DNA from: an uncultured Candidatus Bathyarchaeia archaeon
GTDB taxonomy: Archaea > Thermoproteota > Bathyarchaeia > Bathyarchaeales > Bathyarchaeaceae
Direction of reading: 5' to 3'
Length of the DNA: 64,000 nt
NCBI GenBank assembly: GCA_964418675.1
Contig: CAYQMM010000002.1
Coordinates: 196,875-260,874, forward strand
The notes beneath the pieces are model-generated. The model was given only the letters and a program-made list of their open reading frames with translations. It had not been told where the DNA came from and did not search any database. The position numbers were made by a program, and so were the translations under genes. Positions 4,518 through 61,002 of the stretch are shown here, in pieces (position 1 is the first letter of the stretch; each line of letters begins with the position of its first letter).

Positions 4518-4627
4518 TGTTCTCTGGTCTCCACTATTTTCTTTCAGAAACCTTTATATAAGATGTGCGTAATATGGGTTCCAACCCACAAATTACCCAC
4601 ATGGAGGACAAACGATGACAGGGAGGA

Positions 4628-8927: not shown

Positions 8928-8933
8928 GCAAGG

Positions 8934-10131: not shown

Positions 10132-10710
10132 ATGAGAAAAGTGAAGGTTGAAAGAAAAACGAAAGAAGTGAACATAACCGTGGAGCTAGATGTGGACGGA
10201 AAAGGAAAAATAGAGGTGGAGACGGGCATCAAATTTCTGAACCACCTTCTAGTCACCCTAGCGAAACATGGTCTCTTCGACCTGAAAGTCAAAGCCACAG
10301 GAGACCTGAAGCACCACATAAGCGAGGATGTAGCCTTGGTTTTGGGCGAGGCACTGCGTAAAGTAGTGGATAAAGGGCAGGGAATCAAACGGTTCGGATC
10401 AGCCTATGTTCCCATGGACGAATCCCTTGCAAGAGCAACTGTCGACTTGGGCGGAAGACCCTACATCATCCGAAACCTCAGATTAATGCAACCAGAAATT
10501 GAAGACCTGAAAACCGAGGACATAGAACACTTCTTCGACTCCCTAGCCCAAGCCTCGAAAGCCAACCTGCACATAACAGTTCTCTACGGCAGCAACGAAC
10601 ACCACAAAATAGAAGCAGCCGTAAAAGCCTTAGCTCTGGCGTTGAGGGAAGCTTTACAACTAGACCCAAGAATCGGAGATCAGGTTCCAAGCGCAAAGGG
10701 GGTTCTGTAA
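10132..10710 (+). CDS. hisB: Imidazoleglycerol-phosphate dehydratase
   Basis: The ORF track begins at 10087. The internal ATG 10132 (MRKVKVERKTKEVNITVELDVDG) starts 1 nt after the HAD gene stop. Motifs HHISEDVALVLG and SNEHHKIEA. Confidence 0.9.
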   Translation: MRKVKVERKTKEVNITVELDVDGKGKIEVETGIKFLNHLLVTLAKHGLFDLKVKATGDLKHHISEDVALVLGEALRKVVDKGQGIKRFGSAYVPMDESLARATVDLGGRPYIIRNLRLMQPEIEDLKTEDIEHFFDSLAQASKANLHITVLYGSNEHHKIEAAVKALALALREALQLDPRIGDQVPSAKGVL

Positions 10711-11326: not shown

Positions 11327-12046
11327 ATGCTAATCATCCCAGCAGTGGACATCCTAGAGGGGAAATGCGTCAGACTAGTTCGAGGAGACCCAGAGAAAAG
11401 CAAGGTCTACTACAATGATCCCCTAGAGGCGGCTCAACTGCTGGAGAACCAAGGGGCAGAACTCATCCATCTAATCGACCTCGACGCAGCCTTAGGTTCT
11501 GGACAAAACATGGAAACAATCAAAAAAATATTAGAAACTGTAAGCGTGAAGGTGCAGATAGGCGGAGGAATCAGAACCCTCGAAAAAGCCGATTCTCTCC
11601 TGAAACTCGGCGCCTACCGCGTAATCTTCGGAACAGCCGCAGTTCAGAAACCCCAATTGGTAGAAGAGGCTGCCCGTCGCCACGGATCAAAAAGCGTTGC
11701 CGTAGCTGTGGACGAGAAAGAGGGAAAAGTGGCTGTCCACGGCTGGAAGAGCCGCTCCGAAATAGATTACTTGGACCTCGCCCGCTCTTTCGAAGCCATG
11801 GGAGTTGGCGCCTTAATCTTCACATCAATCAGCGTGGATGGAACCTTGAAGGGACCAAGAATGGAAAAAATCGTGAAACTAGTGGAAGCTGTGAAAGTTC
11901 CGGTCATCGCATCTGGTGGCGTAGCCACTCTAGCGGACTTGGTGGAGTTGGCTGGGACTGGTGTGGAGGGTGTGGTGGTTGGCACCGCCCTTTACGAGAA
12001 AAAGTTTACCCTTAAAGAGGCGTTGGAGGCTGTCAAGGAATGTTAG
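11327..12046 (+). CDS. hisA: ProFAR isomerase
   Basis: 239 aa. [31 protein letters not shown]. Confidence 0.9.
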
Positions 12047-12849
12047 CTAAGAGAATAGTGCCCTGTCTTGATGTCATGGACGGCAAGGTTGTGAAGGGCG
12101 TGCAATTCGTGAACTTGAGAATCGAGGGAGACCCTCCGGAGCTTGCTGCGGTCTATGAAGAACAGGGCGCTGACGAGGTGGTTTTCCTAGATATAACTGC
12201 TTCTCACGAGAAACGAGACACAATGTTGGATGTGGTAAGAAAAACCTCGGATATGATTTCCATCCCCTTCACTGTGGGCGGAGGCATCAGAAACATAACT
12301 GACATTCAGAATGCTCTCTCTTCTGGAGCAGATAAGGTTTCCATAAACACTGCGGCGGTGAGAGAGCCAAAAATCGTGAAGGAATCTGCTGAGGTTTTTG
12401 GCAGTCAATGCATAGTTGTTGCCATAGACTCTAAGAGAGTTTACGTGGACACCAACTTGCCTGACAGGATTGTCGTAGATACTCCTGCGGGGAGGTGCTG
12501 GTGGGAAGTCTATGTTGAGGGTGGAAGAGTGCCCACGGGAATAGATGCCCTAGCTTGGGCTAAGACTGTTAAAGAATTGGGTGCAGGGGAGCTCTTGCCA
12601 ACCAGCATGGACTGTGATGGCACCCAGAACGGGTACGACATAGCTTTGACACGCTCCATGAGTGAAGCAACCAATTTGCCGATAATCGCCAGCGGAGGCG
12701 CAGGAAATCTCAATCACATCTATGAAGTTTTGACGGATGGAGACGCTGACGCCGCTCTGGCAGCCTCCATCTTCCATCGGAGTCAATATTCTGTGGGAGA
12801 AGTTAAGAGGTACCTCGTAGAGAAAGGAGTGCCCATGCGTCTAGTCTAA
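12040..12849 (+). CDS. hisF: Imidazole glycerol phosphate synthase, cyclase subunit
   Basis: 269 aa. [21 protein letters not shown]. 7-nt overlap with hisA. Confidence 0.92.
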
Positions 12850-38302: not shown

Positions 38303-40987
38303 ATGAAATTTTGGAAAAATAAATCGAAGATTACTGCTATTGCTTTTGTTCTGTTGCTATCCTTTGGTGTTATGTTTGTTGCTTTGCCTATCGTTGGTGC
38401 TCATGATCCTTCATGGCAGATTCCAACATATGCCTATCTCGGTGTTTCACCTAACCCCGTTGGCGTCGACCAAACTGTGTTCATTCTAATGTGGATTGAC
38501 AAGATTCCCCCGACAGCAGGGGGTATTGGCGGTGAAAGATGGGAAAACTTCAACATTGTAGTTACAAAACCTGACGACACCACCGAGGACCTTGGCTTAT
38601 TCACGTCCGACGCTACATCATCAACGTATACGCTATACACACCTGACCAAGTCGGCACATATACATTCAATTTCACATTTCCAGGACAGGTGGCAGACCT
38701 GTATGGTCCAACCGGAATACCTGGCATCCCTAGCGCCAATGAAAATGACACTTACTTAGCTAGCACTACAACTGAGACACTTACTGTTCAGGCAGACCCC
38801 GTGGCTGAGCCTCCAGCTTATCCGCTTCCAAGCAGGTTCTGGACGCGTCCCATAGAAGGACAGAACACTCCTTGGTCCAGCGTTGCATCAAACTGGCTGG
38901 GTTGGGGTAGTGGTCAAATTGTTGGAGGAGGAAATTGGGGTGGGGGTGGGGTTCAACCGGACGGCATTGCACCTAACAGCCCTCACATAATGTGGACAAA
39001 GCCGCTGCAGGATGGAGGTGTTGTCGGAGGAACTTATTCAATCGATGGCGTAGGCTACTATTCAGGGCTTTCATATGAAGGCAGATTCAACAATCCACTA
39101 GTCGTTGGCGGAAGGCTCTTCTACGACACACCACTGAGTGATAATCCTACTGCTGGACCATATGTAGCCGTAGATCTGACTACTGGAGAAACATTATGGA
39201 CAAGAGATGACATCTCACCATCATTTGGTCAACTCTACCTTTACGAATCATTTAACCAACACGGTGTCATCGGAGACGGCTACCTTTGGCAGACTCAAGG
39301 TAGGACGTGGAGAGCCATGGACCCACGCACTGGAGTCAATCTGTTCAACCTGACCAACGTTCCTTCTGGCACACCTGTATACAGTCCAAACGGGGAGATA
39401 CAACGTTACGTGCTTAACTATGCGGAACGCTCGCTGTCCTTGTGGACCTCAGCTGCACTACCAAATTCAAGTTTGGTATCGATACCCGGAACCGGAACCG
39501 ATGCTTACCAGTACAGACCTATCGGAAAGGAGGTTAATATGGAAAACAATACTCTGTGGAACGTGACAATACCGGATTTACCGGGTCTCGGAAATCCTGC
39601 CATTCTCAGCGTTATCCCTGATGATTTAGTATTTGGCACTTCCACAGCCTTCCCGCCATTCTTTGGATTTGGGACTCCAGATCCCTACACATTTTGGGCA
39701 ATAAATCTGAACGAATCAAAAGGTGACGTAGGTGAACTGTTGTGGATTCAGAATTATACCGCACCTTCAGGCAACCAAACTCTAGTGTTCTTGGGAACAC
39801 CGAATGTGGTAAACCGCAACCAACAAGTGGATGCAGTGAACCGCGTATTCTTTGCGACAGTTAAAGAGACTATGCAGTGGTATGGCTACGACCTCGACAC
39901 TGGCGAAATGTTGTGGGGTCCGATTGGAGATTTCAGAGACTTCCAGTACTATGGCACTACTTCAAACCCTCCGGCGCCAGGCTACGTCTATAATGGCAAG
40001 TTTTACGTTGCCGGTTACGGTGGAGAACTCCACTGTTACAATTCTAGGACTGGTGCTCTAGAGTGGGTATACAACAACACTAACAGCGGCGAGGAAACAC
40101 CTTGGGGTAATTATCCCCTCTTCGTGAGCACTTTTGCCGACGGAAAAATCTACCTGTTCAGCAGCGAACACTCTCCCAACTCACCACTATACAAGGGTTC
40201 AAGGATACGCGCCGTTAACGCTACAGATGGAACTGAAATATGGACTATGCTGGGCTGGTTTGCTAGCAGCAGTTTTGGTCAATTGGGCAGTCCAATCGCA
40301 GACGGCTACTACATATTCTTCAACATATACGACAATCAAATCTACTGCATCGGCAAGGGACCAAGCAAAACAACAGTCACTGCAGCACCAAAAGTTGTAT
40401 CCTCTGGGTCCAGCATAATAGTTGAAGGCACGGTGACTGATCAATCTGCTGGTGCTAAAAGGAAGGTAGAGAGCGGCGAGTTCAGTGTGGTGCCAGCCAT
40501 GGCTGATGAATACATGGGCGAATGGATGGAGTACGTGTACATGCAGAAGCCTATACCCGCAATGGCTCAAGGAGTTACAGTGCATCTATATGCTATTGAC
40601 CCCAACGGCAACTACCAAGACATAGGAGAAACTCACACCGATCAGTGGGGCAACTTCGGAAAGAGCTGGAAACCACCGGTCCCAGGCGATTATCTCATCA
40701 TAGCTGAATTTACTGGCACAGAATCTTACTGGCCCTCATCAGATTCAACCTATCTAGCAGTGAATCCAGCACCATCAGCCGGACAGCCAATGGAAACTGA
40801 AGAACCAACAACCCCAGCACCACCAACAACTGAAGAGCCATCAACCGCGCCACCAACAACTGAAGAGCCTACAGCAGTGCCGACTGAAGCACCTGTCATA
40901 ACCACAGAAGTGCTCATCATCGCAGCCGTTGGCGTAGCAGCCATCATAGGCGTCGGTGCCTACTGGGTACTCAGAAGACGAAAATAA
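38303..40987 (+). CDS. Large secreted cell-surface glycoprotein: signal peptide, PQQ-like beta-propeller repeats, Ig-like region, Pro/Thr linker, C-terminal TM anchor
   Basis: 894 aa. N-terminal signal-like ITAIAFVLLLSFGVMFVALPIVGA. Many N-x-S/T sequons. Repeated G-x-LW / Y-x-YD blade-like motifs. The C-terminus has PAPPTTEEPSTAPPTTEEP, then VLIIAAVGVAAIIGVGAYWVL and RRRK. Confidence 0.7.
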   Translation: MKFWKNKSKITAIAFVLLLSFGVMFVALPIVGAHDPSWQIPTYAYLGVSPNPVGVDQTVFILMWIDKIPPTAGGIGGERWENFNIVVTKPDDTTEDLGLFTSDATSSTYTLYTPDQVGTYTFNFTFPGQVADLYGPTGIPGIPSANENDTYLASTTTETLTVQADPVAEPPAYPLPSRFWTRPIEGQNTPWSSVASNWLGWGSGQIVGGGNWGGGGVQPDGIAPNSPHIMWTKPLQDGGVVGGTYSIDGVGYYSGLSYEGRFNNPLVVGGRLFYDTPLSDNPTAGPYVAVDLTTGETLWTRDDISPSFGQLYLYESFNQHGVIGDGYLWQTQGRTWRAMDPRTGVNLFNLTNVPSGTPVYSPNGEIQRYVLNYAERSLSLWTSAALPNSSLVSIPGTGTDAYQYRPIGKEVNMENNTLWNVTIPDLPGLGNPAILSVIPDDLVFGTSTAFPPFFGFGTPDPYTFWAINLNESKGDVGELLWIQNYTAPSGNQTLVFLGTPNVVNRNQQVDAVNRVFFATVKETMQWYGYDLDTGEMLWGPIGDFRDFQYYGTTSNPPAPGYVYNGKFYVAGYGGELHCYNSRTGALEWVYNNTNSGEETPWGNYPLFVSTFADGKIYLFSSEHSPNSPLYKGSRIRAVNATDGTEIWTMLGWFASSSFGQLGSPIADGYYIFFNIYDNQIYCIGKGPSKTTVTAAPKVVSSGSSIIVEGTVTDQSAGAKRKVESGEFSVVPAMADEYMGEWMEYVYMQKPIPAMAQGVTVHLYAIDPNGNYQDIGETHTDQWGNFGKSWKPPVPGDYLIIAEFTGTESYWPSSDSTYLAVNPAPSAGQPMETEEPTTPAPPTTEEPSTAPPTTEEPTAVPTEAPVITTEVLIIAAVGVAAIIGVGAYWVLRRRK
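40821..40870 (+). repeat. Two copies of CCACCAACAACTGAAGAGCC with a 30-bp period (the PPTTEEP linker repeat)
   Basis: Identical 20-mers at 40821-40840 and 40851-40870, inside the surface-protein ORF. Confidence 0.85.
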
Positions 40988-41005
40988 ACCATCAATTTCC
41001 CTCCC

Positions 41006-41013
41006 TTTTTTTT
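41006..41013 (+). terminator. T8 tract flanked by CTCCC/GGGGAG complementarity, 19 nt after the surface-protein stop
   Basis: TCCCTCCCTTTTTTTTATGGGGAG. Confidence 0.45.
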
Positions 41014-41247: not shown

Positions 41248-41904
41248 ATGGTTAAAAACAATGAATTTTCGCAGTTAACTGAGGCTCTTGTGGATAAGTC
41301 GCTGACGAAGGAGGAGCTTCTCATTAGGGTTAGACAGGACTTTAGCCTGCTTCCTTTCCTGCTCAGCGGTGTTCATTCCTCAAAAGCCGCTGTTAGATAT
41401 GGTTGTGCAAAAGTATTGATGGATTTAAGCGAAGAGAATCCGGAGAAACTGTATCCCCACCTGGATTTGTTCATTAATCTTTTAGACAGCAAATACAGAA
41501 TCTTAACGTGGAATGCCCTAGCTATCATTGCGAATCTGACCAGAGTTGATGCAGACAAGAAGTTTGATGCCGTCTTCGGCAAGTATTACAGCTTCTTAAG
41601 TAACGACTACATGGTCACAGTTGCGAACGTTGTTGGTAATTCTAGTAAGATTGCCCAAGCAAAACCATATCTTATACCTAAGATAACAGATGAACTGCTG
41701 AAAGTTGAAAGCATTTCTACGACCCCGCATCTAACAGAAGAGTGCAGAAGAGTCATAGCTGAAAAAACCATCAAGTCTCTAGATGTGTTTTTTGACGGAG
41801 TTGAACAGAAAGATAGAGTAATCTCCTTTGTTAAAGCGCATCTTGATAGCCCACGAAAAAGCCTGAGAGTAGCAGCAGAAAACTTTCTCAAGAAATGGGG
41901 CTAA
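41248..41904 (+). CDS. Hypothetical all-helical protein (HEAT/ARM-like repeats?)
   Basis: 218-aa ORF. Periodic helical-repeat appearance. No confident family. Confidence 0.5.
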   Translation: MVKNNEFSQLTEALVDKSLTKEELLIRVRQDFSLLPFLLSGVHSSKAAVRYGCAKVLMDLSEENPEKLYPHLDLFINLLDSKYRILTWNALAIIANLTRVDADKKFDAVFGKYYSFLSNDYMVTVANVVGNSSKIAQAKPYLIPKITDELLKVESISTTPHLTEECRRVIAEKTIKSLDVFFDGVEQKDRVISFVKAHLDSPRKSLRVAAENFLKKWG

Positions 41905-42220: not shown

Positions 42221-42961
42221 ATGGCTCAGCAACTTCATTCAACTTCCATTAAACTAGCCCTTTCAGCCTTCTTCACGGCTTTGGTGTTTGTAGCCACCGT
42301 GATTTTCAGCAGCTATGTTCCTCAAACAACAGGTTTCTTCAATATCGGTGAAACTATGGTTTATACCACTGCCTTACTTTTTGGTCCTTTGGTTGGTGCT
42401 TTCGCTGGGGGGGTTGGTTCTATGCTTGCAGACTTATTCTTGAATTATCCCCTTTTTGCTCCTGCTACTCTTATCATAAAGGGCTGTGAAGGAGCAATAG
42501 TTGGTTTTCTTAGTCGCAAGAAACTTGGGTTAAATTCTAAACTTCAGTGGAGGATTTTCACGTTTGTTGTTGGTTTAGTTGCTGGTCTTCTGTTGGCGGG
42601 TGTGGGTTCAATCTATTATAGTGGGTCTGTTGAGTTGTATATTGGTATTCCTCCGCCTCTAACTCCCAATTTTGTGTTGTCTGTTCCGCCCCTGTTTTGG
42701 TATGGTTTAGGAGCCCTGATTACTGTGCTTATTGCTTTGATGGGTTTTGTGTTTGATCCGGAGTTTGGTTGGCTTGTTCTTACGATTATTGTTGGTGGTT
42801 TGGTGATGGTTTCGGGGTATTTTCTTTATGAGCAGTTCTTTCTTGGTGTGGCGGCGGTGGCGGAGATTCCTATTAATGTGGGGCAGATGAGTGTTGGTCT
42901 TATCGTTTCGATTCCTATTGTGCGGGCTGTGTGGCGTTATCTTCCTTCCCTCAGAACTTAG
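42221..42961 (+). CDS. ECF-transporter S-component-like membrane protein
   Basis: 246 aa, about six TM segments. FFNIGETMVYTTALLFGPLVGAFAGGVGSMLADL resembles substrate-capture S components. Confidence 0.6.
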   Translation: MAQQLHSTSIKLALSAFFTALVFVATVIFSSYVPQTTGFFNIGETMVYTTALLFGPLVGAFAGGVGSMLADLFLNYPLFAPATLIIKGCEGAIVGFLSRKKLGLNSKLQWRIFTFVVGLVAGLLLAGVGSIYYSGSVELYIGIPPPLTPNFVLSVPPLFWYGLGALITVLIALMGFVFDPEFGWLVLTIIVGGLVMVSGYFLYEQFFLGVAAVAEIPINVGQMSVGLIVSIPIVRAVWRYLPSLRT

Positions 42962-44325
42962 TTTTTTGTCTTTTTGAGGGCGTGTATATTTTTTAGTCTC
43001 GGTGTGTAGATGTGTTGGGGTGGGCTGGTGGTGTCAATGGAGCCTAAGAGGTTGGAGAGGGTTCTGGTGGTTTCTAAGGCTGACCCATCTGAGGTTAATG
43101 GGGTTTTGGTTGCTGGGGGCTTCAGGGTTGTTGAGGAGAATCCTGATTTTGTTGTTTGTTTTGGGGGTGATGGTACGGTTTTGTTTGGGGAGAGGAGTTT
43201 CCCTGGGGTTCCTAAGCTTATTGTGAAGACCTCGAGGGTTTGGAGGGAGTGGGATTATACTCTGGAGAACTTGAATGATGTTTTGTCTGGGATTAGGGCG
43301 GGGGATTTTCGGTTGCGTGGGGAGATGAAGTTGGTGGCGGAGGCGGGGGGTGTGAGGTTGGTGGGGTTGAATGAGGTTCAGGTTCATTTGAAGTTGCCGA
43401 TTTCTGCTGTGAGGTTTAGTGTTTCTGTTGATGGGAGGGAGTTTGGTGGTTTGGTGGGTGATGGGGTTGTTGTTGCTACGCCTTTTGGTTCAACGGGGTA
43501 TTATGAGGCGACTGGAGGAGAAAGATTCGAGAAGGGCATTGGTATTTCCTTTAACAACTTGCACAACAGGAAGATAGGGAGTTTTGTGGTTTCGGAGGAT
43601 TCTGTGGTGAAGTTGAGGGTGAGGAGGGGTCCTGCGTGGCTTTTGGCGGATAATAATGAGAATTTTGTTGAGTTGAATGGTGGGGATTCTGCGGTTGTGC
43701 GGAGGGCTGATGGTGTGGCGAGGTTCATTGTTGTTTCTGGGAGGTGAAGGGTGATTGTTGAGGGTTGGGCACCGGGGGGCTAGGGCTTATGAGCCTGAGA
43801 ATACGTTGCGGAGTTTTGGGAGGGCTATTGAGTTGGGGGTTGATGCGGTGGAGTTGGATGTGAGGAGGACGGCGGATGGGGAGGTTGTTGTTGTTCATGA
43901 TGCTAAGGTGGATCGGGTTACGGATGGGAGGGGTTTGGTGGGGGAGCTTACGTTGGAGGAGATTAAGGGGTTCACTGCTGAGAAGGGGGAGAAGATTCCT
44001 ACTTTGGGGGAGGCGTTGGATTTCTTGAAGGGAAAGGTGAAGGTGTTGATAGAGCTGAAGGAAAGTGGCATTGAAGAGCAGGTTGTGGATTTGATTCGTG
44101 AGAGGGGGATGGTGGAGTCTGTGATTGTTGTCTCTTTTTTGGAGGAGGCTCTTGGGAGGGTGAGGGAGTTGGATGAGGGGGTGGCGACGGGCTTGATTTA
44201 TGTTCGGTACAAGAAGCCTGTTGAGGCGGCTTTGGAGTTGGGAGCGGAGTATCTGCTTCCGTTGTATAGGTTTACGCATTCTGCGGATGTGAGGAAGGCT
44301 CATGAGGCTGGGTTAAAGGTGATCG
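42380..44325. other. Tract with a G+T-rich plus strand (A- and C-depleted); the right edge is sharp and falls inside the GDPD ORF
   Basis: Hand count of 43021-43080: G26 T17 A10 C7. 35 of the first 40 codons from 43010 end in G or T. The intergenic stretch 42962-43009 shares the bias. Confidence 0.8.
43037..43747 (+). CDS. nadK: NAD kinase
   Basis: The ORF track starts at 43010. ATG 43037 (MEPKRLERVLVV) gives a typical N-terminus. GGDGTVL and ATPFGSTGY motifs. Confidence 0.85.
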   Translation: MEPKRLERVLVVSKADPSEVNGVLVAGGFRVVEENPDFVVCFGGDGTVLFGERSFPGVPKLIVKTSRVWREWDYTLENLNDVLSGIRAGDFRLRGEMKLVAEAGGVRLVGLNEVQVHLKLPISAVRFSVSVDGREFGGLVGDGVVVATPFGSTGYYEATGGERFEKGIGISFNNLHNRKIGSFVVSEDSVVKLRVRRGPAWLLADNNENFVELNGGDSAVVRRADGVARFIVVSGR

Positions 44326-44417
44326 TCTGGACCATCAACACCCCAGAAGAAGTTAATGAATACATGAAGAAGGGCGTAGACGGCATAGCAACAGACAAAC
44401 CAGACATCTTCAAATAA
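43755..44417 (+). CDS. Glycerophosphodiester phosphodiesterase
   Basis: 220 aa with a TTG start. GHRGA, EPENTLRSF, ELDVRRTADGEVVVVHD. Confidence 0.85.
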   Translation: MLRVGHRGARAYEPENTLRSFGRAIELGVDAVELDVRRTADGEVVVVHDAKVDRVTDGRGLVGELTLEEIKGFTAEKGEKIPTLGEALDFLKGKVKVLIELKESGIEEQVVDLIRERGMVESVIVVSFLEEALGRVRELDEGVATGLIYVRYKKPVEAALELGAEYLLPLYRFTHSADVRKAHEAGLKVIVWTINTPEEVNEYMKKGVDGIATDKPDIFK

Positions 44418-44423
44418 TAAAAA

Positions 44424-44472
44424 CAGAAAAAAGCTAGTTTTCAACAATGAAGTATTATTAGGCTCCAAATAG
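44424..44472 (+). repeat. Left copy of the 48/49-bp inverted repeat (39-bp perfect core at 44428-44466)
   Basis: CAGAAAAAAGCTAGTTTTCAACAATGAAGTATTATTAGGCTCCAAATAG equals the reverse complement of 59504-59551, apart from one extra A and one A/T mismatch. Confidence 0.95.
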
Positions 44473-44509
44473 CTCATGTGAAAAGAGCTAAAAAGGTTCG
44501 TTTTTTAAA

Positions 44510-45475
44510 CTATAATATGCATTCCTGTCTTCGGATAAACAAAAAAATGCTATTGATAGCGGTTAAAGTCACAAGGAAAACCTCAATTGGGAGGTCACTA
44601 GACACATCCCAACTTTGATTATTAATTTCAGTATCCGTTGTATGTTTGAACGCATTTCTCATTTGACCGACAAATTGGATGAAACCAAGTTGTTTCTTGG
44701 TAATCTTTCCAGCTGACTTTAATCTGTTACCTATCTCTATGAAGCCTCTTGTTCTCGTTATGTTAACAGATTCATCATTTGCACATTTCTTGAGAAAGTC
44801 TTCAAAAACATCTGCCGTTTCTTTTATGCAAGAAATTGGCGCTGATTCAAACTTCATGCCAGCTGAAATGAGTTTTTCCTTTAAATCTCCTAAATATTGA
44901 ACAACTGCATCATCTAATTGATTTGCAACATAAGCCTCAATCTGCGCTTCATCATTTAGAGTGTTCTGGATTGATTTGAAAACGTTAAGTATTTCTGGTT
45001 GCTCTTTGAAAATAGGTTCAACACCTCTCTCTGTTTCTGCAAACACTTGTGAAAAACTCCCAAGTTCAAGAAGAGTATTTTTAAGAATTGTTATGCTTCC
45101 TGTAACGTTGAAAACTGTTTTGGTTTTGATTGTTGCACGGGTTACATCTTCCCCCCTGAGAATAAGACCGAAAAAGAATTTGAAAGGCTTGTATTGCATA
45201 AGCAAAAATTTCAAAATAGCTTTTTTATCATTGGCTTTCGCGTTTGAGAGCAAACGGGCAAATGGAAGTGTTGCTTTATAGAGTCCCCCATCATTTTTAA
45301 CAAGCTTAAGTTGCATTGCCATTTTTAATGCCTTTTCAGCTGTATCTGAATCAATATCGGAATATTGAACAATTTCGGGTAGCGTTGCCCTATCTCGTAA
45401 AACAATAACAGCCTCTACAACATCTAGAAGATTTCTATGGTTCACTTCAACAGCTTCATAGTTGCTGGAACTCAT
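44510..45475 (-). CDS. Hypothetical protein: N-terminal winged-helix-like region plus a C-terminal helical domain with a HEPN-type R-x4-H motif (QMRNAFKH); candidate RNase/toxin
   Basis: 321-aa ORF in an AT-rich island. ATGA overlap with the upstream ORF. Motif read directly from the translation. Confidence 0.45.
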   Translation of the reverse strand: MSSSNYEAVEVNHRNLLDVVEAVIVLRDRATLPEIVQYSDIDSDTAEKALKMAMQLKLVKNDGGLYKATLPFARLLSNAKANDKKAILKFLLMQYKPFKFFFGLILRGEDVTRATIKTKTVFNVTGSITILKNTLLELGSFSQVFAETERGVEPIFKEQPEILNVFKSIQNTLNDEAQIEAYVANQLDDAVVQYLGDLKEKLISAGMKFESAPISCIKETADVFEDFLKKCANDESVNITRTRGFIEIGNRLKSAGKITKKQLGFIQFVGQMRNAFKHTTDTEINNQSWDVSSDLPIEVFLVTLTAINSIFLFIRRQECIL

Positions 45476-46257
45476 TCCGTTGCTTCCCCACGTTTTTCAG
45501 AATGAATCAAATAGTTCCTAATCTTCCTAATAGCTTCAGCAATTTCCTGCAAGTCAGACTCTTCTGGGTGTATTGGAACCTGAAAATCCAGTCGAATCTG
45601 AATTTGCATTGGAATTTCCTTTTTTTCTAAAACTCTATATTTTTGGAGTTGTAGCTGTTTTGTTGTAACCTCGGTTCCACTCAATTTTGCTGTAACTTCT
45701 GTCCTAGGTGTCTCCCTCAGTTTCCCAGCAAGTTCAGTGGCAGTGATGTTATCACCCTCTCTTTCAACTAATTTAGAAGTAACGAGAATGTCAATTACTG
45801 CTTGTGCTCCAATGGTCGATCTTGGGTCCTTTTTTGTAACCTTTGCCCGTTTTCCAATTTCATCCCTTAACTGATAATTAGAAATACTGCCTCGGGTTTT
45901 TATCGAAAATACTAAACTTTTCAAAAATTCGTTTTCATAGATTAATGTTCTAAATGCAGAAGAAATCCCTTCCTCGTCACCGTACTCAATTGAGTAAGCT
46001 AGGTCTATGCCTTCCTTGGTTAATGAATAAGCAGTACCTTCTTTTTCTACTATGCCCATGAACTCAATAGCCTTAATATTCTGGCTAACCATTGCAGGGT
46101 GTCTTCCGATATATGTTGACACAGTCTTTGTGGAAACTGGTTGCTTCTCTGCACCAGCATTCAAGAAGCCTTTGATTATGCTTAAAAAAAGGTCATAACT
46201 CCCCCGAGGTAATTCTATCAGTTCTTCGGTTGACAATATGTCTCCCTCATTAATCAA
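45472..46257 (-). CDS. Hypothetical protein with a MarR-like winged helix (possibly two wH units); candidate regulator/partner of the HEPN-like protein
   Basis: 261-aa ORF. VSTKTVSTYIGRHPAMVSQNIKAIEFMGIVEKEGTAYSLTKEG looks like a wHTH. The C-terminus has IRKIRNYLIHS. Confidence 0.45.
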   Translation of the reverse strand: MINEGDILSTEELIELPRGSYDLFLSIIKGFLNAGAEKQPVSTKTVSTYIGRHPAMVSQNIKAIEFMGIVEKEGTAYSLTKEGIDLAYSIEYGDEEGISSAFRTLIYENEFLKSLVFSIKTRGSISNYQLRDEIGKRAKVTKKDPRSTIGAQAVIDILVTSKLVEREGDNITATELAGKLRETPRTEVTAKLSGTEVTTKQLQLQKYRVLEKKEIPMQIQIRLDFQVPIHPEESDLQEIAEAIRKIRNYLIHSEKRGEATE

Positions 46258-46489
46258 TGCATAGCATGTCTTTAATTCTGCTCTTTAGTGTTTCGGTGTA
46301 ATTATATTGATTCATTCGAAACTTTTTTGTTGGATGCATGAACCCTGCCTTGAAGTTTTAGCTATTACTTAATTAGCGAGATCATTACTTTCCTTGTTTA
46401 TTGTGACGTAATAGAAAGTAGCGGGGAAAAGGCGAGAGTATCAGAAAAATGAAGAAACTACATAATTTCATATCTGTAGAACTGTGTTG

Positions 46490-47701
46490 TTACCAGATTG
46501 TTATTTTTCCTTTGATTAGTTGTTGGCAGAAGTTTTCTATGTTTGCCAGTTCAGCGTCTATCACGTCGATTATCCGCTTCTCCACACTCTTCTCCAACGC
46601 GCCGCCACCATCCATAACCACCTGAGCCGCAGCAATCGCAGGCTGATCAATCGGCTTACCAATCCGACTCAACAACCAAACACAAACCTCAGCCGCCTCA
46701 GGCACCTCATCACAAACCCGCCGAGCAATCCTATGACTCAAAGCATTGTAAATCTTCCCCACATGACTAACCGGATTCTTCCCAGCCGCAGCCTCAGTCC
46801 CAATCGGACGATTCAAAGAAATAACACCATTCACCTTATTCCCCCGCCCCACCTGACCAGAATCCGCACCATCCGCACTCGTACCCAAAACAGTCAAATA
46901 CACACCATCCACACCCCGACCCTCAACATCCAAAGTATTCAAACTCACAAAATGCTTCTCAAAACGCCCCTTCCCCTCAACAAACTTGCGGACGTCCTCC
47001 AGCATCGCCGCCTTCTTCTCCATATAATCCCGCTCGCCAGATACAAACCTGTCAACAAAAGCCATAGCGATAGTTAAGTCAAGGCATTCCCCATACCTGA
47101 AACCCATAACCTTCACATCCTCCCCAGCCGCAGGAAACCGATCCTTAAACCCTTTCGAATTCACGTACCTCTCAGTCTCCAAAACCGTATTCTCAACCCT
47201 ACTCAAAGGAGCATAACCCACAGCCGCACTAGTATCATTAGCACCAAACATACACACCTTCCTCCTGAAAATGTCAGTAAGCCCCTGACTACCCGGCTTC
47301 AACTCCACCTGATACCTCATATGCACATCAGGATCAACAAACCGCAAATTCTTCTTCAACCAATCCTTAGCCGTCTCAACAGCAATCTCCCCCACAGGAA
47401 TCTTCTTCCCATCAGCCTCAAAAGTCGCCCGATCACCAAAAATAAGAAGCATTGGCTCATTCACAACACCCCCACCAAACCGGCACTCAACCTCACCCGC
47501 AACCAACAACGACTTATCAGCATTATGATGCAAAATCGCCCCAAACTCATCCAAATACGCCTTACTCAAACCCACAGAAACCTGATCCATAATCGCATCA
47601 CACATAGAATCAGGATGCCCAACACCCTTCCGCTCAACAATCTCAATCTGCTGCTTCTCAAGAGGAATCCGCCTCGAACCAGACACCATAATATTCCGCA
47701 T
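46490..47701 (-). CDS. metK: Archaeal-type S-adenosylmethionine synthetase
   Basis: The ORF track starts at 47728. The internal ATG 47701 gives MRNIMVSG...IEIVERKGVGHPDSMCDAI, the canonical archaeal MAT N-terminus. Confidence 0.88.
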   Translation of the reverse strand: MRNIMVSGSRRIPLEKQQIEIVERKGVGHPDSMCDAIMDQVSVGLSKAYLDEFGAILHHNADKSLLVAGEVECRFGGGVVNEPMLLIFGDRATFEADGKKIPVGEIAVETAKDWLKKNLRFVDPDVHMRYQVELKPGSQGLTDIFRRKVCMFGANDTSAAVGYAPLSRVENTVLETERYVNSKGFKDRFPAAGEDVKVMGFRYGECLDLTIAMAFVDRFVSGERDYMEKKAAMLEDVRKFVEGKGRFEKHFVSLNTLDVEGRGVDGVYLTVLGTSADGADSGQVGRGNKVNGVISLNRPIGTEAAAGKNPVSHVGKIYNALSHRIARRVCDEVPEAAEVCVWLLSRIGKPIDQPAIAAAQVVMDGGGALEKSVEKRIIDVIDAELANIENFCQQLIKGKITIW

Positions 47702-49380
47702 AGAAACACCTTGCCGAATGGCTAACACAAATAATTCATATATACCTTACGATACAACGAGCACCAAAACCCAACACACAACACCTATTCCATCTCGCAC
47801 CACCAAAACTTTTCCACCCCCAATTTTTGCCATAAAATTGTAGCAAACATTGATAAACAAGACCACTCCATACTGCAAAATATGCTAGAACATTTAAAAG
47901 AAGCCTGCGGAGTCTTCGGAGCACAAGACCACCAAAACAAACCCATATTCCCCTACATCTACTGGGGACTACGCGCCCAAAACCACCGCGGACACCAATC
48001 CCACGGCTTCCTCACCTACGACAGCGGAGCATTCCACAGCCACAAAGGACTAGACCTAGTCCCAAAAATAAGAAACGAAGAAATCAACGAATGGCTCACA
48101 AAACTCCCCGGACCAACCGGACTAGGACACGTAAGATACAGCACCTCAGGCGGAACCGACCAACAATCCCTCGTAAAAAGCACCCAACCCATCCTAGAAA
48201 CATACGGAACCAAACAAATCGCCCTAGCCTTCAACGGCAACGTCGTCAACACCCCCCAAATAATCCAAGAAATAAGAGAAGACTACCCCAACTTCCGCTT
48301 CAACTACGACGCAGAACTAATCTCCAGAAAACTCCTAAGACTCGGAAAAAAAGACGACCTAGCCTCATCCATCAAAAGATGCATGAAAGAAATCGAAGGC
48401 GCCTTCTCCGTAGCAGGAATAACCGAAAAAGGAGAACTCTTCGCCTTCAAAGACCCACGCGGAATAAGACCCCTATGCTGCGGCTGCAGCAGAGACAGAA
48501 AAACTTGCGTAGTCTCATCAGAAACCGTGGGCCTAGACATAAACGACTTCCAACTAGATTTTGAAATAAACCCCGGAGAACTCGTAACCGCCACAAAAGA
48601 CGGATTCAACCGGGAACAACTGGTAAACGGAGAAAAAAAGGCATTATGCGCCTTCGAATTCGCCTACTTCTCCAGACCAGACTCAAAACTAGGAGACAAG
48701 CACGTTTACGAAGTAAGAGAAGAATTCGGAAGAAACTTCGCTTGGGAATACCCAGAAACCACCAGCAAAGTAGACATAATCCTATCCATGCCCGAAACAG
48801 GCAACGACGCCGCCTTCGGATTCCACGAACTAACACGCATAAGATGGGAAAGAGCCTCAAGAAGACACAGATACGTAGCAGAAAGAGCCTTCATCCTCCT
48901 ACCCGAAGAACGATACACAACAATAAACAGAAAAATCAACATCGTCGACCACAAACTAATCGGAAAAAACGTCGCAGTAGTAGATGACAGCATCGTCAGA
49001 GGCGACACCACCAAAGTCGTAGTGAAAAAACTCCGCGAAATGGGCGCAAAAAAAATCTACCTCTTCATCACCTTCCCCCGAATAATAGGCCCCTGCTTCT
49101 ACGGAGTCGACATGGCAACCTACCGAGAACTCATAGGATCACGATACGAACCCGAAGAGATAGCAGAGATAGTGGGCGCCGACGCCGTAAACTACCAATC
49201 AGTAGAAGGACTTGTCAAAGCCACCGGCATGAACAAAGACGAACTATGCCTAGGATGCATCACAGGCAAATATCCCACGCCCATGGCACAGAGACTGGCA
49301 GACGAAATGAAAGAAAGATTCGCGAACGGCTACAACGAACAAGGAAGAATATACGAGACTGCCATCAACTAACCCAGAAT
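46570..49380. other. Tract with an A+C-rich plus strand (G- and T-depleted) spanning most of metK (minus strand), the divergent intergenic region and all of purF (plus strand)
   Basis: Hand counts: 47401-47460 A19 C19 G8 T14; 48091-48150 A20 C20 G13 T7. 37 of the first 40 purF codons end in A or C. The intergenic stretch 47729-47881 has only about 10 G. Confidence 0.8.
47882..49372 (+). CDS. purF: Amidophosphoribosyltransferase
   Basis: 496 aa. Propeptide then CGVFG. Ntn-amidotransferase and PRTase (VVDDSIVRGDT) motifs. Confidence 0.9.
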   Translation: MLEHLKEACGVFGAQDHQNKPIFPYIYWGLRAQNHRGHQSHGFLTYDSGAFHSHKGLDLVPKIRNEEINEWLTKLPGPTGLGHVRYSTSGGTDQQSLVKSTQPILETYGTKQIALAFNGNVVNTPQIIQEIREDYPNFRFNYDAELISRKLLRLGKKDDLASSIKRCMKEIEGAFSVAGITEKGELFAFKDPRGIRPLCCGCSRDRKTCVVSSETVGLDINDFQLDFEINPGELVTATKDGFNREQLVNGEKKALCAFEFAYFSRPDSKLGDKHVYEVREEFGRNFAWEYPETTSKVDIILSMPETGNDAAFGFHELTRIRWERASRRHRYVAERAFILLPEERYTTINRKINIVDHKLIGKNVAVVDDSIVRGDTTKVVVKKLREMGAKKIYLFITFPRIIGPCFYGVDMATYRELIGSRYEPEEIAEIVGADAVNYQSVEGLVKATGMNKDELCLGCITGKYPTPMAQRLADEMKERFANGYNEQGRIYETAIN

Positions 49381-49394
49381 GCGGGTGACCCCGG

Positions 49395-50804
49395 ATGGAA
49401 AAAGTTGGCATCCTAGTGGTTTCGTACGGCTCAAGAGCAGTTGCCATGATAGACACTTTCCTCCGCAGCGAAGAATACGCCCCAGAAATCTACGTTGTGG
49501 ACAAACAGAAAAACCCCTTCAACGTAAAACGGGCTGAGAGACACATTGTTATTTCTGACTTCAATTTAAAGGAAATTGTGAGGTTCGCCAAAAGGCACGA
49601 AGACAGAATAGACTTTGGGATAGTTGGCCCTGAAAAGCCCATCATTGCTGGCGTGCGAGACCTCGTCGAGAAGGAAACACGTATACCAATGATATGCCCC
49701 ACCAAGAGATATGCCATCGAAGGCAGCAAGGTGGCTCAGCGGCAGCTGTTCCAGAGGGTTGCCCCCGAAGTAAACCCGAAATTCAAGGTTTTTGACCCGA
49801 AGGATTACGGCAGCGTGGGGCATGTTAAGAAGAGCGTTTACGCTTGGCTTAAAGAACTCAACAACGAGGTGGCGGTGAAGCCTGACAGAGCAACTGCTGG
49901 AAAGGGGGTCGGCGTTTGGGGTGACCATTTCAGCACTCGCGAAGAGGTTTTCGAGCATTTTCTCTCCAACTACCAGTATGGTCCAGTGATAATTGAGGAG
50001 AAAGTTGAGGGAGAAGAGTCCAGTTTCCAAACGTTCTGCGATGGAAAGCGTTTGGTTCCCTTGCCTGAGACCCGTGACTACAAGAGAGCCTTTGATGGCG
50101 ATAAGGGTCCAAACACTGGGGGGATGGGTTCCTACAAAGACTCCGGAGATATTCTTCCATTCATGAATTCAAGGGATAGGGAGAAAGAAATTGAACTTGT
50201 TAACAGGGTTTTCAGGGAACTGAAGGGAAAAGGAAGCAATCCCGAGTTGCGAGGCATCCCCTTCTACTCCGCCTTCATCCACACCAGCAAAGGACCAAAA
50301 ATCTTGGAGAATAACAGTCGACCCGGAGACCCAGAGATAATGAACCTTCTTCCCGTCCTGAAGGACGACTTCGTTGAGTTTTGCTATAAAATGTTGGATG
50401 GAAACCTGAGGAAGGTCGATTTTAGGGGGATGGCGACTGTTGTGACCTACAAGGTTCCGCCCAGCTACGGTGGCTACTCAACAGAGTTTCCTGAACGAGT
50501 GGAGAAGAATGAAGTAGATACTCCTGTAGATTTGTCGGGAGCACAAAAACTGGTTGAGAAAGAGGGGGAGAGAATAAGGGTTTATCCGGGGTCTTTGGAG
50601 TTGAGGGATAGAGAGAATTTTGCCCTTGGGTCTCGTGCCGTCTGTGTCGTCGGCATTGGAGATGACATTCAGGAGGCTAGGGAAAGCTCCTTGGAGGGCA
50701 TAGGGGCGATTAAAGGCGGAGCTCTTTGGAACAGAGATGATATTGCCGCAGCAGAACATATTAAGAAAAGCGTGCGACACATGGAAAAGCTGAGGAGGCG
50801 CTGA
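49395..50804 (+). CDS. purD: Phosphoribosylamine-glycine ligase
   Basis: 469 aa. ATP-grasp features (GKGVGVWG, GPNTGGMGSY, ENNSRPGDPE). Confidence 0.88.
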   Translation: MEKVGILVVSYGSRAVAMIDTFLRSEEYAPEIYVVDKQKNPFNVKRAERHIVISDFNLKEIVRFAKRHEDRIDFGIVGPEKPIIAGVRDLVEKETRIPMICPTKRYAIEGSKVAQRQLFQRVAPEVNPKFKVFDPKDYGSVGHVKKSVYAWLKELNNEVAVKPDRATAGKGVGVWGDHFSTREEVFEHFLSNYQYGPVIIEEKVEGEESSFQTFCDGKRLVPLPETRDYKRAFDGDKGPNTGGMGSYKDSGDILPFMNSRDREKEIELVNRVFRELKGKGSNPELRGIPFYSAFIHTSKGPKILENNSRPGDPEIMNLLPVLKDDFVEFCYKMLDGNLRKVDFRGMATVVTYKVPPSYGGYSTEFPERVEKNEVDTPVDLSGAQKLVEKEGERIRVYPGSLELRDRENFALGSRAVCVVGIGDDIQEARESSLEGIGAIKGGALWNRDDIAAAEHIKKSVRHMEKLRRR

Positions 50805-59503: not shown

Positions 59504-59551
59504 CTATTAGGAGCCTAATAATACTTCATTGTTGAAAACTAGCTTTTTCTG
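59504..59551 (-). repeat. Right copy of the 48/49-bp inverted repeat (39-bp perfect core at 59510-59548)
   Basis: The reverse complement reads CAGAAAAAGCTAGTTTTCAACAATGAAGTATTATTAGGCTCCTAATAG. Confidence 0.95.
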
Positions 59552-59571: not shown

Positions 59572-61002
59572 TTATGTGACTAGTTTCACGCTTTCGGCGA
59601 CGGTTTCAGCTCTTTTCAGGTTGTTGAGGAGAACCTGGAATCGGTAGGAGCTTTTGGCGATTTTAGCCAACTGTTTCACGATGTAGTCTGGGCGAATGAA
59701 GAATCTCTGGTAACCTTCATGGATCATCTCTTCAATCTCTTCGCAGGGTACAGCGTCCGGCGAGACTTCAGGCACCAGAACCCCGGTTTCCCAGTGTTTC
59801 TCTTCATCCAAGAAGCCCTGCATCTTCAGTTCCTCCCAGATGTCTGTTCCCGGAAAAGTGGCTAGAATGTTGAATTGGGGGATGTCCACCTGCAGCTTCC
59901 GCACATACTTTAGGGTGTTCTGGATTTCTCTTCTTGTTTCGTGGGGAGCCCCCAAAATAAAGGATGCAACAATCACATCTATCCCTGCCCTCCTAGCTTT
60001 TCGAACAGCATCGACTGCCTGTTGCGGGGTCGTCCGTTTATCGTAATAATCTAGAACCTTCTGGCTGGCGTTTTCGATTCCAAAATACATCATTTTACAG
60101 TTTGCCCTAGCCATCTCCTGTAGCATATCTTGGGGACAATGGTCAACTCTGCCTTCAGCAAAAAATTCCACCCCCACCCTCTCTTTCCTCAGCCTACGGC
60201 ATATCTTGATGACTCTTTTCGGGTTCAAAGTGAAGTTGTCATCCACAAAAAGAAACTGTTTGTAACCCTGACTGGAGAGAAGATGCAGCTCCTCAACTAT
60301 ATTCTCCACTGACCTAGACCGCCACAGGTCTCGAGCCAATCTTCTGCATCCACAAAAACGACATTGAAAAACGCAGCCTCTGGAGGAGACGAAGCTACTG
60401 AATTTTTTCGGGGCAACAACTATGCCAGCGGTCGTGTTGTGGTATTCTACGTCCAGCAATTCCCTGTCGGGGAACGGTAGGGAGTCAATATCCTTGATTA
60501 GGGGTCTATCAGGAGTTGAAATTATCTGACCATCATTTCTGAAGTTGATTCCCAAAACTTTCTTCAGCTCTCCCTTCTTCTCAAGGCACTTTGCCAGTTC
60601 GAGGCTGGTGTATTCTCCTTCTCCCCGAACAATCACATCCACAAAAGGATATTTCTTCAAGATTCTCTCAGCGTTGAAGGTGGCATAGAAATTGCCGAGA
60701 ACAGTGATGATGTCCGGGTTCTCCCTCTTCACTCTCTCCGCGATAAGTGCTGCTTTGCGTCCTGAACTGCTGCAGGTGGAGAAGCCTAGGATATCCGGGT
60801 TCTCTTTCTTCACCCAGTCAACTGTGCCCTTCAGGGAGTAGCCCTGTGTTGCCTCGTCTATGATGGAGACATCTATTCCGTTTTCTCTGAGGTAGGTTGC
60901 TATGTAAAGCATGCCGAGGGGAGGGGCTGCCCCCACCATCTTCCTAACATCTTCGATGGGAAGCTCAGGATTTGGACCCGGATTTATGAACGAGAACTTC
61001 AT
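59572..61002 (-). CDS. B12-binding-domain radical SAM protein (class B)
   Basis: 476 aa. N-terminal cobalamin-binding-like Rossmann domain. SSRGCVFQCRFCG (Cx3Cx2C). Confidence 0.8.
   Translation of the reverse strand: MKFSFINPGPNPELPIEDVRKMVGAAPPLGMLYIATYLRENGIDVSIIDEATQGYSLKGTVDWVKKENPDILGFSTCSSSGRKAALIAERVKRENPDIITVLGNFYATFNAERILKKYPFVDVIVRGEGEYTSLELAKCLEKKGELKKVLGINFRNDGQIISTPDRPLIKDIDSLPFPDRELLDVEYHNTTAGIVVAPKKFSSFVSSRGCVFQCRFCGCRRLARDLWRSRSVENIVEELHLLSSQGYKQFLFVDDNFTLNPKRVIKICRRLRKERVGVEFFAEGRVDHCPQDMLQEMARANCKMMYFGIENASQKVLDYYDKRTTPQQAVDAVRKARRAGIDVIVASFILGAPHETRREIQNTLKYVRKLQVDIPQFNILATFPGTDIWEELKMQGFLDEEKHWETGVLVPEVSPDAVPCEEIEEMIHEGYQRFFIRPDYIVKQLAKIAKSSYRFQVLLNNLKRAETVAESVKLVT

Follow-up and report, generated by a model that had tools for sequence, protein, structure and literature searches.

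In animal mitochondrial genomes, a G+T-rich H strand is paired with an A+C-rich L strand. Bases are depleted almost completely at neutral sites (G makes up only a few percent at the four-fold sites of L-strand genes), and it is the DNA strand that sets both codon usage and amino-acid content, in a mutational equilibrium filtered by purifying selection. The same amino/keto (A+C versus G+T) axis and the same characteristics are found in a 64,000-nucleotide stretch from an uncultured Bathyarchaeia archaeon related to Candidatus Bathyarchaeum (contig CAYQMM010000002.1, positions 196,875 to 260,874; hereafter the window, meaning the whole stretch). The window contains two domains on the kilobase scale in which a strand-specific transition bias is nearly saturated, one on each side of a convergent-gene junction: a right tract covering metK and purF, and a left mirror tract covering the NAD kinase (NADK) and GDPD genes. 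The mitochondrial asymmetry extends over the whole genome, is tied to asymmetric replication and shows C→T saturating before A→G, whereas the tracts are domains of 2–3 kb in a chromosome of ~1.5–2 Mb, flip at a junction and involve both transitions together.

Other described asymmetries share single features with the tracts. Replication-associated GC or keto skew also renders the leading strand G+T-rich, and in C. glutamicum the leading strand gains more of both C→T and A→G (PMC6159521). At the junction, the sign changes with the polarity of a replication terminus, but replication skew is weak and replichore-wide, whereas the tracts are local and extreme, with more than one switch within 80 kb and no long-range skew. 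GC-skewed regions that form R-loops (CpG-island promoters and the terminators of convergent genes) resemble the locus in the non-template GC skew of most tract genes and in the convergent 3' ends. In those regions the skew follows transcription; here, purF and the spacer upstream of both putative promoters take the polarity of their neighbour, and the T/A skew is as strong as the G/C skew. Kataegis and the damage to single-stranded DNA that accompanies resection or break-induced replication at double-strand breaks show a polarity switch across a centre, as for 3' tails, a kilobase reach and a decay with distance. Such damage is somatic, arises in single events and is sparse, C→T changes occurring in a deaminase motif at a density of a few per kb, whereas the tracts are germline, saturated and therefore motif-independent, contain A→G changes to an equal degree and were built over speciation time. 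The mismatch-repair nuclease NucS/EndoMS cuts G.T, G.G and T.T but not A.C mismatches, and G.T and A.C also differ in replication-error frequency and in repair (PMC6159521). This biochemical asymmetry lies on the amino/keto axis and treats the two transitions alike, but the enzyme is a genome-wide corrector of replication errors for which no local polar compositional effect has been reported, and it is here a candidate only. Literature searches on local keto/amino skew, on codon or strand bias in Bathyarchaeia and on accession CP070820 returned no description of such tracts. The tracts represent an extreme, local form of mutational strand asymmetry, and there is a substantial chance that they reflect an undescribed bias in archaeal repair or recombination.

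Composition and extent of the two tracts

Composition profiles of the whole 64 kb contain two outliers, at 42.4–44.3 and 46.6–49.4 kb. The plus-strand A+C fraction is 0.672 in the right tract (46570–49380; z = +6.4) and 0.283 in the left tract (42380–44325; z = −6.9), against a background of 0.500 ± 0.027 with a maximum of 0.556 in 1018 windows of equal length. GC skew and AT skew reach +0.70 and −0.56, respectively, in the left outlier and −0.57 and +0.50 in the right one, while the GC content is ordinary in both (0.46–0.52). Between its change points the left tract is 72% G+T on the plus strand. The base counts given in the initial annotation are exact (47401–47460: A19 C19 G8 T14; 48091–48150: A20 C20 G13 T7), and its estimate of about 10 G in the metK/purF spacer agrees with our recount. 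The opposite polarity that it assigned to the two tracts is borne out both by composition and by k3, defined as the fraction of codons whose third position, read on the coding strand, is G or T.

Values of k3 are 0.91 for NAD kinase, 0.82 for GDPD and 0.77 for ECF-S, all encoded on the plus strand of the left tract, and 0.88 for metK and 0.07 for purF in the right tract. The 45 other genes of the window have k3 values of 0.27–0.60 (mean, 0.44), indicating that A/C-ending codons are preferred, and purD has a value of 0.50. G/T-ending codons follow one another in runs of hundreds in metK, NADK and GDPD, as do A/C-ending codons in purF, in which the third base is A or C in 37 of the first 40 codons, as had been reported. 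At third positions of the keto-rich strand, A and C are each reduced to ~5%, and the saturation level at neutral sites is 88–98%. purF is the sole gene at the locus whose coding strand is amino-rich far outside the usual range of the genome.

Tract edges were placed by likelihood change points, supplemented by codon-by-codon maps of third positions, and lie at 42544 (gradual), 44324, 46574 and ~49532. The inner edges are abrupt and lie 57–93 nt ahead of stop codons; in the window, the distance to the convergent stop codon is 84 nt for metK and 93 nt for GDPD. The right tract had been said to begin about 80 nt inside the 3' end of metK, close to the position found here. The outer edges are intragenic and gradual, with a fade of 300–500 nt inside ECF-S and across the end of purF and the start of purD; the left tract sets in gradually from ~42300. 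Contrary to the earlier view that the right tract runs to the purF stop codon, the bias declines over the last ~70 codons of purF and the first ~45 codons of purD. Both tracts are finished within 2–3.5 kb. The gene ends of ~85 nt at the two inner edges have a polarity reversed relative to their own tract: codons 7–384 of metK are ~95% G/T-ending, whereas its last 28 codons are ~86% A/C-ending. Across classes of rising bias, k3 of the last 20 metK codons falls from 0.22 through 0.20 and 0.12 to 0.06, so that the 3' end grows more A/C-ending as the gene body grows more G/T-ending. No A/C codon preference at gene 3' ends was found in the 45 other genes of the window.

Among the weaker patches listed in the initial annotation, the A/C-rich segments at 4590–4830 and 10450–10640 rank in the top 1–2% of windows of their length, but the G/T-rich segment at 11850–12400 lies at the 17th percentile and is unremarkable. 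A gene for a 218-aa hypothetical protein upstream of the left tract begins with ~30 codons that are ~80% G/T-ending (41248–41340), and the same small keto block outside the main tract is kept in L002 (see below; 5513–5600). A tandem 30-nt repeat at 40817–40876 encodes a Pro/Thr-rich linker at the C-terminus of an 894-aa PQQ/beta-propeller protein; the A+C-rich patch at 40547–41011 is due to the amino-acid composition of this repeat linker and not to the tract process.

The bias acts at the level of DNA rather than of codons. In biased genomes (described in the next section), the metK/purF spacer has promoter-like blocks conserved at both ends, and its unconserved middle is almost pure A/C (~95%). 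The A+C fraction of the whole spacer is 0.71–0.76 in extreme genomes versus 0.56–0.61 in unbiased relatives, and the spacers of L001 and L003 are almost without G and T. The intergenic region between ECF-S and NADK is 67–81% G/T in biased genomes versus 54% in the unbiased orthologue. Amino-acid-changing positions are affected as well, moving the way the tract does. When transitions at codon positions 1 and 2 were counted relative to an outgroup consensus, the ratio of amino→keto to keto→amino changes was 148:39 in metK and 53:70 in purF, compared with control ratios of 103:45 in purD and 79:51 in the next gene; replacements in metK are typically K>R, N>D and I>V. Codons of the NNU/NNC type, which share one tRNA, are polarised as much as NNG/NNA codons. 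The tract spans two divergent genes and the spacer between them, and the bias thus follows the DNA strand rather than the coding strand, as had been proposed, along with the argument against translational selection, which the two intergenic regions and positions 1 and 2 support. A mutation or repair bias at the DNA level, not selection, is very probably responsible.

The shift is consistent with transitions alone, since the purine/pyrimidine class is kept and transversions are not raised: at four-fold sites, the class is conserved relative to outgroups at 73–76% of sites in tract genes and 76–78% in controls, and transversion divergence among the extreme genomes does not rise. On the plus strand, the direction of change is G→A and T→C in the right tract and C→T and A→G in the left tract. 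GC3 stays at ~0.5 over the bias classes, while G/(G+A) and T/(T+C) climb in lock-step over ~100 genomes (0.32/0.40, 0.43/0.44, 0.53/0.59, 0.67/0.62 and 0.88/0.89); as a test against deamination with C→T leading, this is a soft one, because each genome may sit at its own equilibrium. A lock-step rise would follow if A→G and C→T both arose by way of the same G.T/A.C mispairs. Deamination of single-stranded DNA accounts for C→T plus A→G on one strand and for transitions without transversions, both of which are observed, but the expected much faster rise of C→T than of A→G is not seen. Thermal or hydrolytic deamination is unlikely, given that C→T does not lead A→G and that the genus Bathyarchaeum is mesophilic (PMC10477458), and for these two reasons a G.T/A.C-asymmetric process fits better. 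As marks of a targeted hypermutation system, either a diversity-generating retroelement or one based on a deaminase, neither a reverse transcriptase nor a deaminase domain was detected among the open reading frames (ORFs) scanned with Pfam (most, not all, of the long ORFs of the window), and no TR/VR-like repeat pair was found in the window; a trans-acting enzyme may nevertheless be encoded elsewhere.

Inheritance among related genomes

Loci anchored on purF from 23 related genomes and loci anchored on metK from 80 JGI contigs were compared, together representing ~100 genomes. The same extremes (metK k3, 0.85–0.89; purF k3, 0.05–0.18) are present in four other records: L001 (CAZUQX), L002 (the complete chromosome CP070820.1), L003 (CAZUDX) and L105 (JGI Ga0209635). 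With L031 and L033, the number of independent records that carry tracts comes to at least six, one of them a closed chromosome. Metagenome assembly is the source of the window, and an AT-rich foreign island does sit between the tracts, but an artefact of assembly, binning or sequencing, or foreign DNA, can be dismissed with near certainty as the origin of the tracts because independent assemblies carry them. Moreover, the reading frames are intact, the pattern is specific to codon position, the GC content is typical, and alignments with relatives continue unbroken across the tract edges, which also excludes assembly breakpoints at these edges. The tract proteins are 85–90% identical to those of relatives at the amino-acid level, the orthologues are syntenic, and the tract genes show the same species relationships as their neighbours; GC content, synteny and relationships of this kind set the tracts apart from the AT-rich island, which has the characteristics of a horizontally acquired segment.

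The bias is heritable and progressive, increasing stepwise with relatedness toward the clade of the window. Genomes whose MetK is at least 85% identical have metK k3 values of 0.85–0.89, those at 74–80% identity have values of 0.54–0.69 (with purF at 0.17–0.40), and those at 60–65% identity have values of 0.31–0.53 and are mostly unbiased. In every case, metK and purF shift oppositely by coding strand and thus identically by DNA strand. In two distant relatives with 61–64% MetK identity, L099 (Ga0153915_10448212) and L101 (JADDYB010002170.1), metK is biased the other way (coding k3, 0.15 and 0.25, respectively), which suggests that either polarity is possible at metK. A JGI scan for relatives yielded none closer than 80% except a partial one at 90%, an exact-sequence look-up of the window's NAD kinase gave no match, and L029 and L030, compared for a strain-level spectrum of single-nucleotide polymorphisms, are identical.

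The left tract consists of different genes in different genomes. In L003 it comprises genes for enoyl-CoA hydratase, thiolase, DUF35 and 3-hydroxyacyl-CoA dehydrogenase, in which ~98% of codons end in G/T. Beside metK, in the window, L001 and L002, the NADK operon is extreme, but it is only mosaic (k3, 0.40–0.56) in L029 (CAZUDX010000001.1), a locus of the L003 genome ~80 kb from L003 itself; the HBD operon is extreme beside metK in L003, but unbiased (k3, 0.43–0.60) in L032, located elsewhere in the chromosome of L002. The bias is thus not intrinsic to the genes; nor, given the one-sided tracts without metK in L031 and L033 (see below), is it a matter of mere adjacency to metK. A weaker second keto→amino switch is present in L029 (2435–5545), where citrate synthase (plus strand; k3, 0.78) and AP_endonuc_2 (minus strand; 0.24) are followed by CBS (minus strand; 0.76) and the change falls in a 125-bp intergenic region near 4550. 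All sharp switches observed share one polarity, with each strand keto-rich 5' of the switch and amino-rich 3' of it.

A weak form of keto/amino patterning extends beyond the tracts. At the loci examined for patchiness (the window, L001–L023, L029 and L032), every Bathyarchaeia locus shows keto and amino third positions clustering along its genes, with mean runs-test z values of −1.2 to −3.3 per gene and an autocorrelation of 0.11 at adjacent codons that is ~0.02 out to 30 codons, giving a reach of ~30–50 codons. At these loci there is no clustering on the purine/pyrimidine or strong/weak axes, and keto/amino clustering is absent from the control loci of Legionella, Thermococcus and Bacillota. 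No significant correlation of bias across gene boundaries, as a regional DNA-level bias genome-wide would give, was found. The clustering may be a low-level form of the tract process or an effect of Watson–Crick versus wobble decoding.

The junction between the tracts

The DNA 3' of metK differs in nearly every genome compared, and the junction is a hotspot of insertion and synteny breaks. The island of the window is 2.06 kb long, and its genes show neither keto/amino bias nor patchiness; its two ORFs matched no Pfam or PADLOC family and gave weak winged-helix hints. The island of L003 contains an integrase-like ORF and a TIR (ThsB-like) protein, whereas that of L001 carries two other ORFs of unassigned function that are unrelated to those of the window and L003. 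In L002 there is no island, and the tracts abut, with convergent stop codons 100 bp apart. The junction thus looks like a variable, possibly defence-related, hotspot. In L005, the metK/purF spacer measures 1059 bp instead of the usual ~190 bp owing to an insertion of ~870 bp, and this spacer may also be an insertion site.

A conserved element of ~50 nt, about CCAGAAAAAGCTAGTTTTCAACAATGAAGTATTATTAGGCTCC, lies directly 3' of the stop codons of unrelated genes, always in gene orientation. Its host genes include GDPD, HBD, metK and the radical-SAM gene at 59572–61002 (copy at 59504–59548, minus strand), and further copies occur in L003 (6353), L004 (7907 and 20931), L005 (4228 and 20677), L010 (8388), L013 (8473), L031 (~11393), L032 (~11225) and L033 (~11205). 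The element contains a 7+7 palindrome (TATTAGG..CCTAATA) and, when read in the opposite direction, an oligo-T run. Candidate functions are those of a bidirectional terminator, a site of protein binding or an att-like site. An Rfam search of 41–61 kb, the element included, gave no match, no tRNA that might mark an att site was found in the window, and no other repeat family was found at the junction. The element was rejected as a sufficient cause of the bias, as it also lies beside unbiased genes (window 59504, L032, L004, L005 and L013).

It had been proposed that the opposite polarities arose by inversion of a 15-kb segment bounded by 48-bp inverted repeats. The data do not support this: the mirror orientation is common to L001, L002 and L003, the abutting tracts of L002 leave no 15-kb segment between them, and the repeats are copies of the recurrent ~50-nt element, which is also present in unbiased genomes. 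The features of the locus are listed in Table 1.

Table 1. Coordinates of the tracts, genes and other features of the locus within the window
Feature	Position	Strand	Remarks
Right tract	46574–49532	plus strand A+C-rich, minus strand G+T-rich	metK body, spacer, purF and first ~140 nt of purD
metK, archaeal S-adenosylmethionine synthetase	46490–47728	−	Pfam PF01941, E = 2.9e-159
Reversed-polarity 3'-terminal 84 nt of metK	46490–46573	−	plus strand 64% G+T
Divergent metK/purF intergenic region, 153 bp	47729–47881		A62 C47 G10 T34
purF, amidophosphoribosyltransferase	47882–49372	+	Pfam GATase_6/7; 93% of codons A/C-ending
Left mirror tract	42544–44324	plus strand G+T-rich	distal ECF-S, NAD kinase and GDPD, all on plus strand; Pfam
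Reversed-polarity 3'-terminal 93 nt of GDPD	44325–44417	+	plus strand 64.5% A+C
AT-rich inserted island, GC ~0.37	44420–46482		between the two convergent stop codons
Two ORFs of the island, 321 and 261 aa	44510–45475, 45472–46257	−	unassigned function
~50-nt element directly 3' of GDPD stop codon	44428–44472	+	inverted copy at 59504–59548

Long ORFs run antisense to or out of frame with the tract genes (46520–47077, 47321–47725, 48091–48564 and 43725–44303 in the window; 8606–9979, up to 457 aa, in L002; 3639–4523 in L003). The possibility of an overlapping antisense gene was rejected, as the encoded 'proteins' are of low complexity and the open frames are a mechanical by-product: where sense third positions are never A/C (or never G/T), the codons of an alternative frame never start with T, and this frame is free of stop codons. 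Such long spurious antisense ORFs are liable to appear as gene calls inside tracts.

Processes that may have produced the tracts

A strand-specific mutational or recombinational history, as proposed in the initial annotation, is the right class of explanation. The best reading, which we put forward tentatively, is that strand breaks recur at the junction and are followed by long-patch resection and resynthesis in which G.T and A.C mispairs meet unequal fates. The keto-gaining strand would be the one that runs 5'→3' toward the junction, with A and C being replaced by G and T wherever selection tolerates it. The junction would be hit by recurrent strand discontinuities, i.e. a nick, a double-strand break or a collapsed fork, and excision or resection would proceed outward from this fixed point over a variable distance of up to ~2–3.5 kb. 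The single-stranded or resynthesis intermediate would handle G.T unlike A.C, and/or the exposed strand would be deaminated, and keto bases would build up on one strand over many generations. Such a process would have been active at metK–purF through a long lineage, more strongly toward the clade of the window, with third positions and unconstrained spacers saturating and positions 1 and 2 drifting only slightly because purifying selection keeps the proteins working. Edges that are abrupt toward the junction and fade away from it agree with a process that is anchored and extends over variable distances. The polarity is the one that strands with their 3' ends directed at a nick or break in the junction would have, a geometry that we infer from composition and k3. 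Three versions would give the right polarity. In the first, a break, nick or collapsed fork at the junction would expose the strand that has its 3' end directed toward it; in the second, A.C-type errors would persist in a strand resynthesised outward; in the third, incoming 3' tails would drive conversion toward amino bases, with a mismatch nuclease specific for G.T acting as the filter.

Several observations weigh against this reading. The mechanism is deduced from the polarity and shape of the tracts. One-sided tracts, which a simple two-ended break does not predict, are found in L031, where the NADK operon (k3, 0.72–0.84) stands beside an unbiased Fer4 gene, and in L033, where the HBD operon (k3, 0.65–0.88) stands beside a gene other than metK. 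In relatives of moderate bias, no partner tract lies 3' of metK, and the bias has its maximum inside metK and purF rather than at the 3' end of metK. The ~50-nt element found at the tract edge also adjoins unbiased genes. The reversed ends of ~85 nt in both convergent genes require an extra assumption. Finally, plain hydrolytic deamination of single-stranded DNA is not a good fit, considering the mesophilic genus and the pace of A→G.

The third of the versions above leads to an alternative that is unlikely but has several points in its favour, namely strand-polar biased gene conversion at a hotspot of island exchange. Incoming island DNA would recombine through the flanks by its 3' tails, and a NucS/EndoMS-like nuclease would destroy keto–keto heteroduplexes (G.T, G.G and T.T) but ignore A.C; only amino donor alleles would enter, and the flanks would gain amino bases on the strand with its 3' end directed away from the island. 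By inference, this scheme would yield the exact mirror polarity and the sharp-inner, gradual-outer shape, and it would account for the amino/keto axis and for the lock-step of A↔G and C↔T changes. The mismatch specificity is documented (PMC6159521), the junction holds variable, defence-like islands, and keto/amino clustering over at most 50 codons is present in all Bathyarchaeia loci but not in the three control taxa. On the other hand, there is no patchiness at the Thermococcus control locus (only 10 genes), which belongs to a genus in which EndoMS was discovered. One-sided tracts are not predicted, L002 is extreme yet island-free, and the tract genes track the species relationships of their neighbours, with no sign of frequent allele import between species. 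Rather more doubtful is replication asymmetry at a fixed site of fork convergence (terminus- or dif-like) or a replication barrier, in which nascent leading strands or exposed lagging-strand templates of both approaching forks would gain G/T, amplified over the last 2–3 kb by fork stalling. The polarity is terminus-like, the plus strand being keto-rich and then amino-rich, and the leading-strand preference in C. glutamicum for C→T and A→G has the required direction (PMC6159521). At an origin, the plus strand would instead pass from amino to keto, with Orc1/Cdc6 and ORB repeats in the vicinity; Pfam scans of most, not all, long ORFs of the window detected no replication initiator, and the ~50-nt element is the one repeat family at the junction. 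Replication termini are hotspots of rearrangement and integration, and the junction is likewise a hotspot. Long-range skew is nevertheless missing outside the tracts, with k3 of plus- and minus-strand genes at ~0.44 versus 0.43 on the left and ~0.46 versus 0.41 on the right. In addition, a second, weaker switch lies ~80 kb away on the contig of L003 (L029), one-sided tracts are found at other junctions, moderately biased relatives lack the partner tract, and bias is in general uncorrelated across gene boundaries.

Transcription-associated mutagenesis with self-reinforcing R-loops, in which the displaced non-template strand would be deaminated, become G-rich and run away toward G+T, is improbable. 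The coding strand is indeed keto-rich in metK, ECF-S, NADK, GDPD, thiolase, DUF35, HBD, citrate synthase and CBS, the non-template GC skew of +0.6–0.7 is strongly R-loop-prone, and positive feedback would account for all-or-none, lineage-specific extremes. Against this, purF (k3, 0.05–0.15) and the purD of L003 are reversed relative to their own transcription, and the bias is just as strong in the spacer, which lies upstream of both promoters. Toward its outer edges the bias fades gradually within genes instead of stopping at promoters, at the inner edges it ends ~85 nt ahead of stop codons instead of at terminators, and A→G keeps up with C→T. Selection on codon or mRNA composition has very little probability. 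It would require a hyper-optimised purF and, in metK and the other operons, de-optimised codons or a G+U-rich, weakly structured mRNA, on the premise that A/C-ending codons form Watson–Crick pairs with G34/U34 anticodons while G/U-ending codons need wobble or C34 tRNAs. The amino/keto axis does coincide with Watson–Crick versus wobble decoding, background genes already favour A/C-ending codons (mean k3, 0.44), and the keto/amino patchiness is intragenic and stops at gene boundaries. Selection on translation is contradicted by the shift in spacers and at positions 1 and 2 and by the same operons being unbiased in sister genomes; non-coding DNA shifts as strongly as third positions, amino-acid-changing positions shift as well, NNU/NNC codons read by one tRNA are polarised like NNG/NNA, and no greater extremes are seen in neighbouring genes of the same genomes. 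Of replication skew, transcription with R-loops and translational selection, none passes every test.

Recurrent breakage and asymmetric repair at the junction would belong to a broader proposal, which is likewise tentative: Bathyarchaeia may have a previously undescribed, site-anchored process of strand-specific mutation or biased conversion that would, over evolutionary time, recode kilobases of essential genes to the point where one strand is nearly pure G/T, and would shift amino-acid composition as well. It might take the form of an unequal treatment of G.T and A.C when recombination or repair intermediates are processed at insertion hotspots, and the same process may leave the weaker keto/amino mosaic genome-wide. 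Asymmetry of such extent is otherwise known mainly from whole organelle genomes, whereas here it occupies a few kilobases of the chromosome of a free-living archaeon. The locus provides a natural experiment on breaks, repair synthesis and mismatch processing in archaea, a domain in which little is understood of mismatch repair and recombination. Should a bias of repair or conversion anchored to a site be the cause, it would be a source of codon-usage and amino-acid evolution that mimics selection, would call for caution in codon-based prediction of expression and in the detection of horizontal gene transfer in metagenomes, and would offer a sequence-readable marker of break and insertion hotspots.

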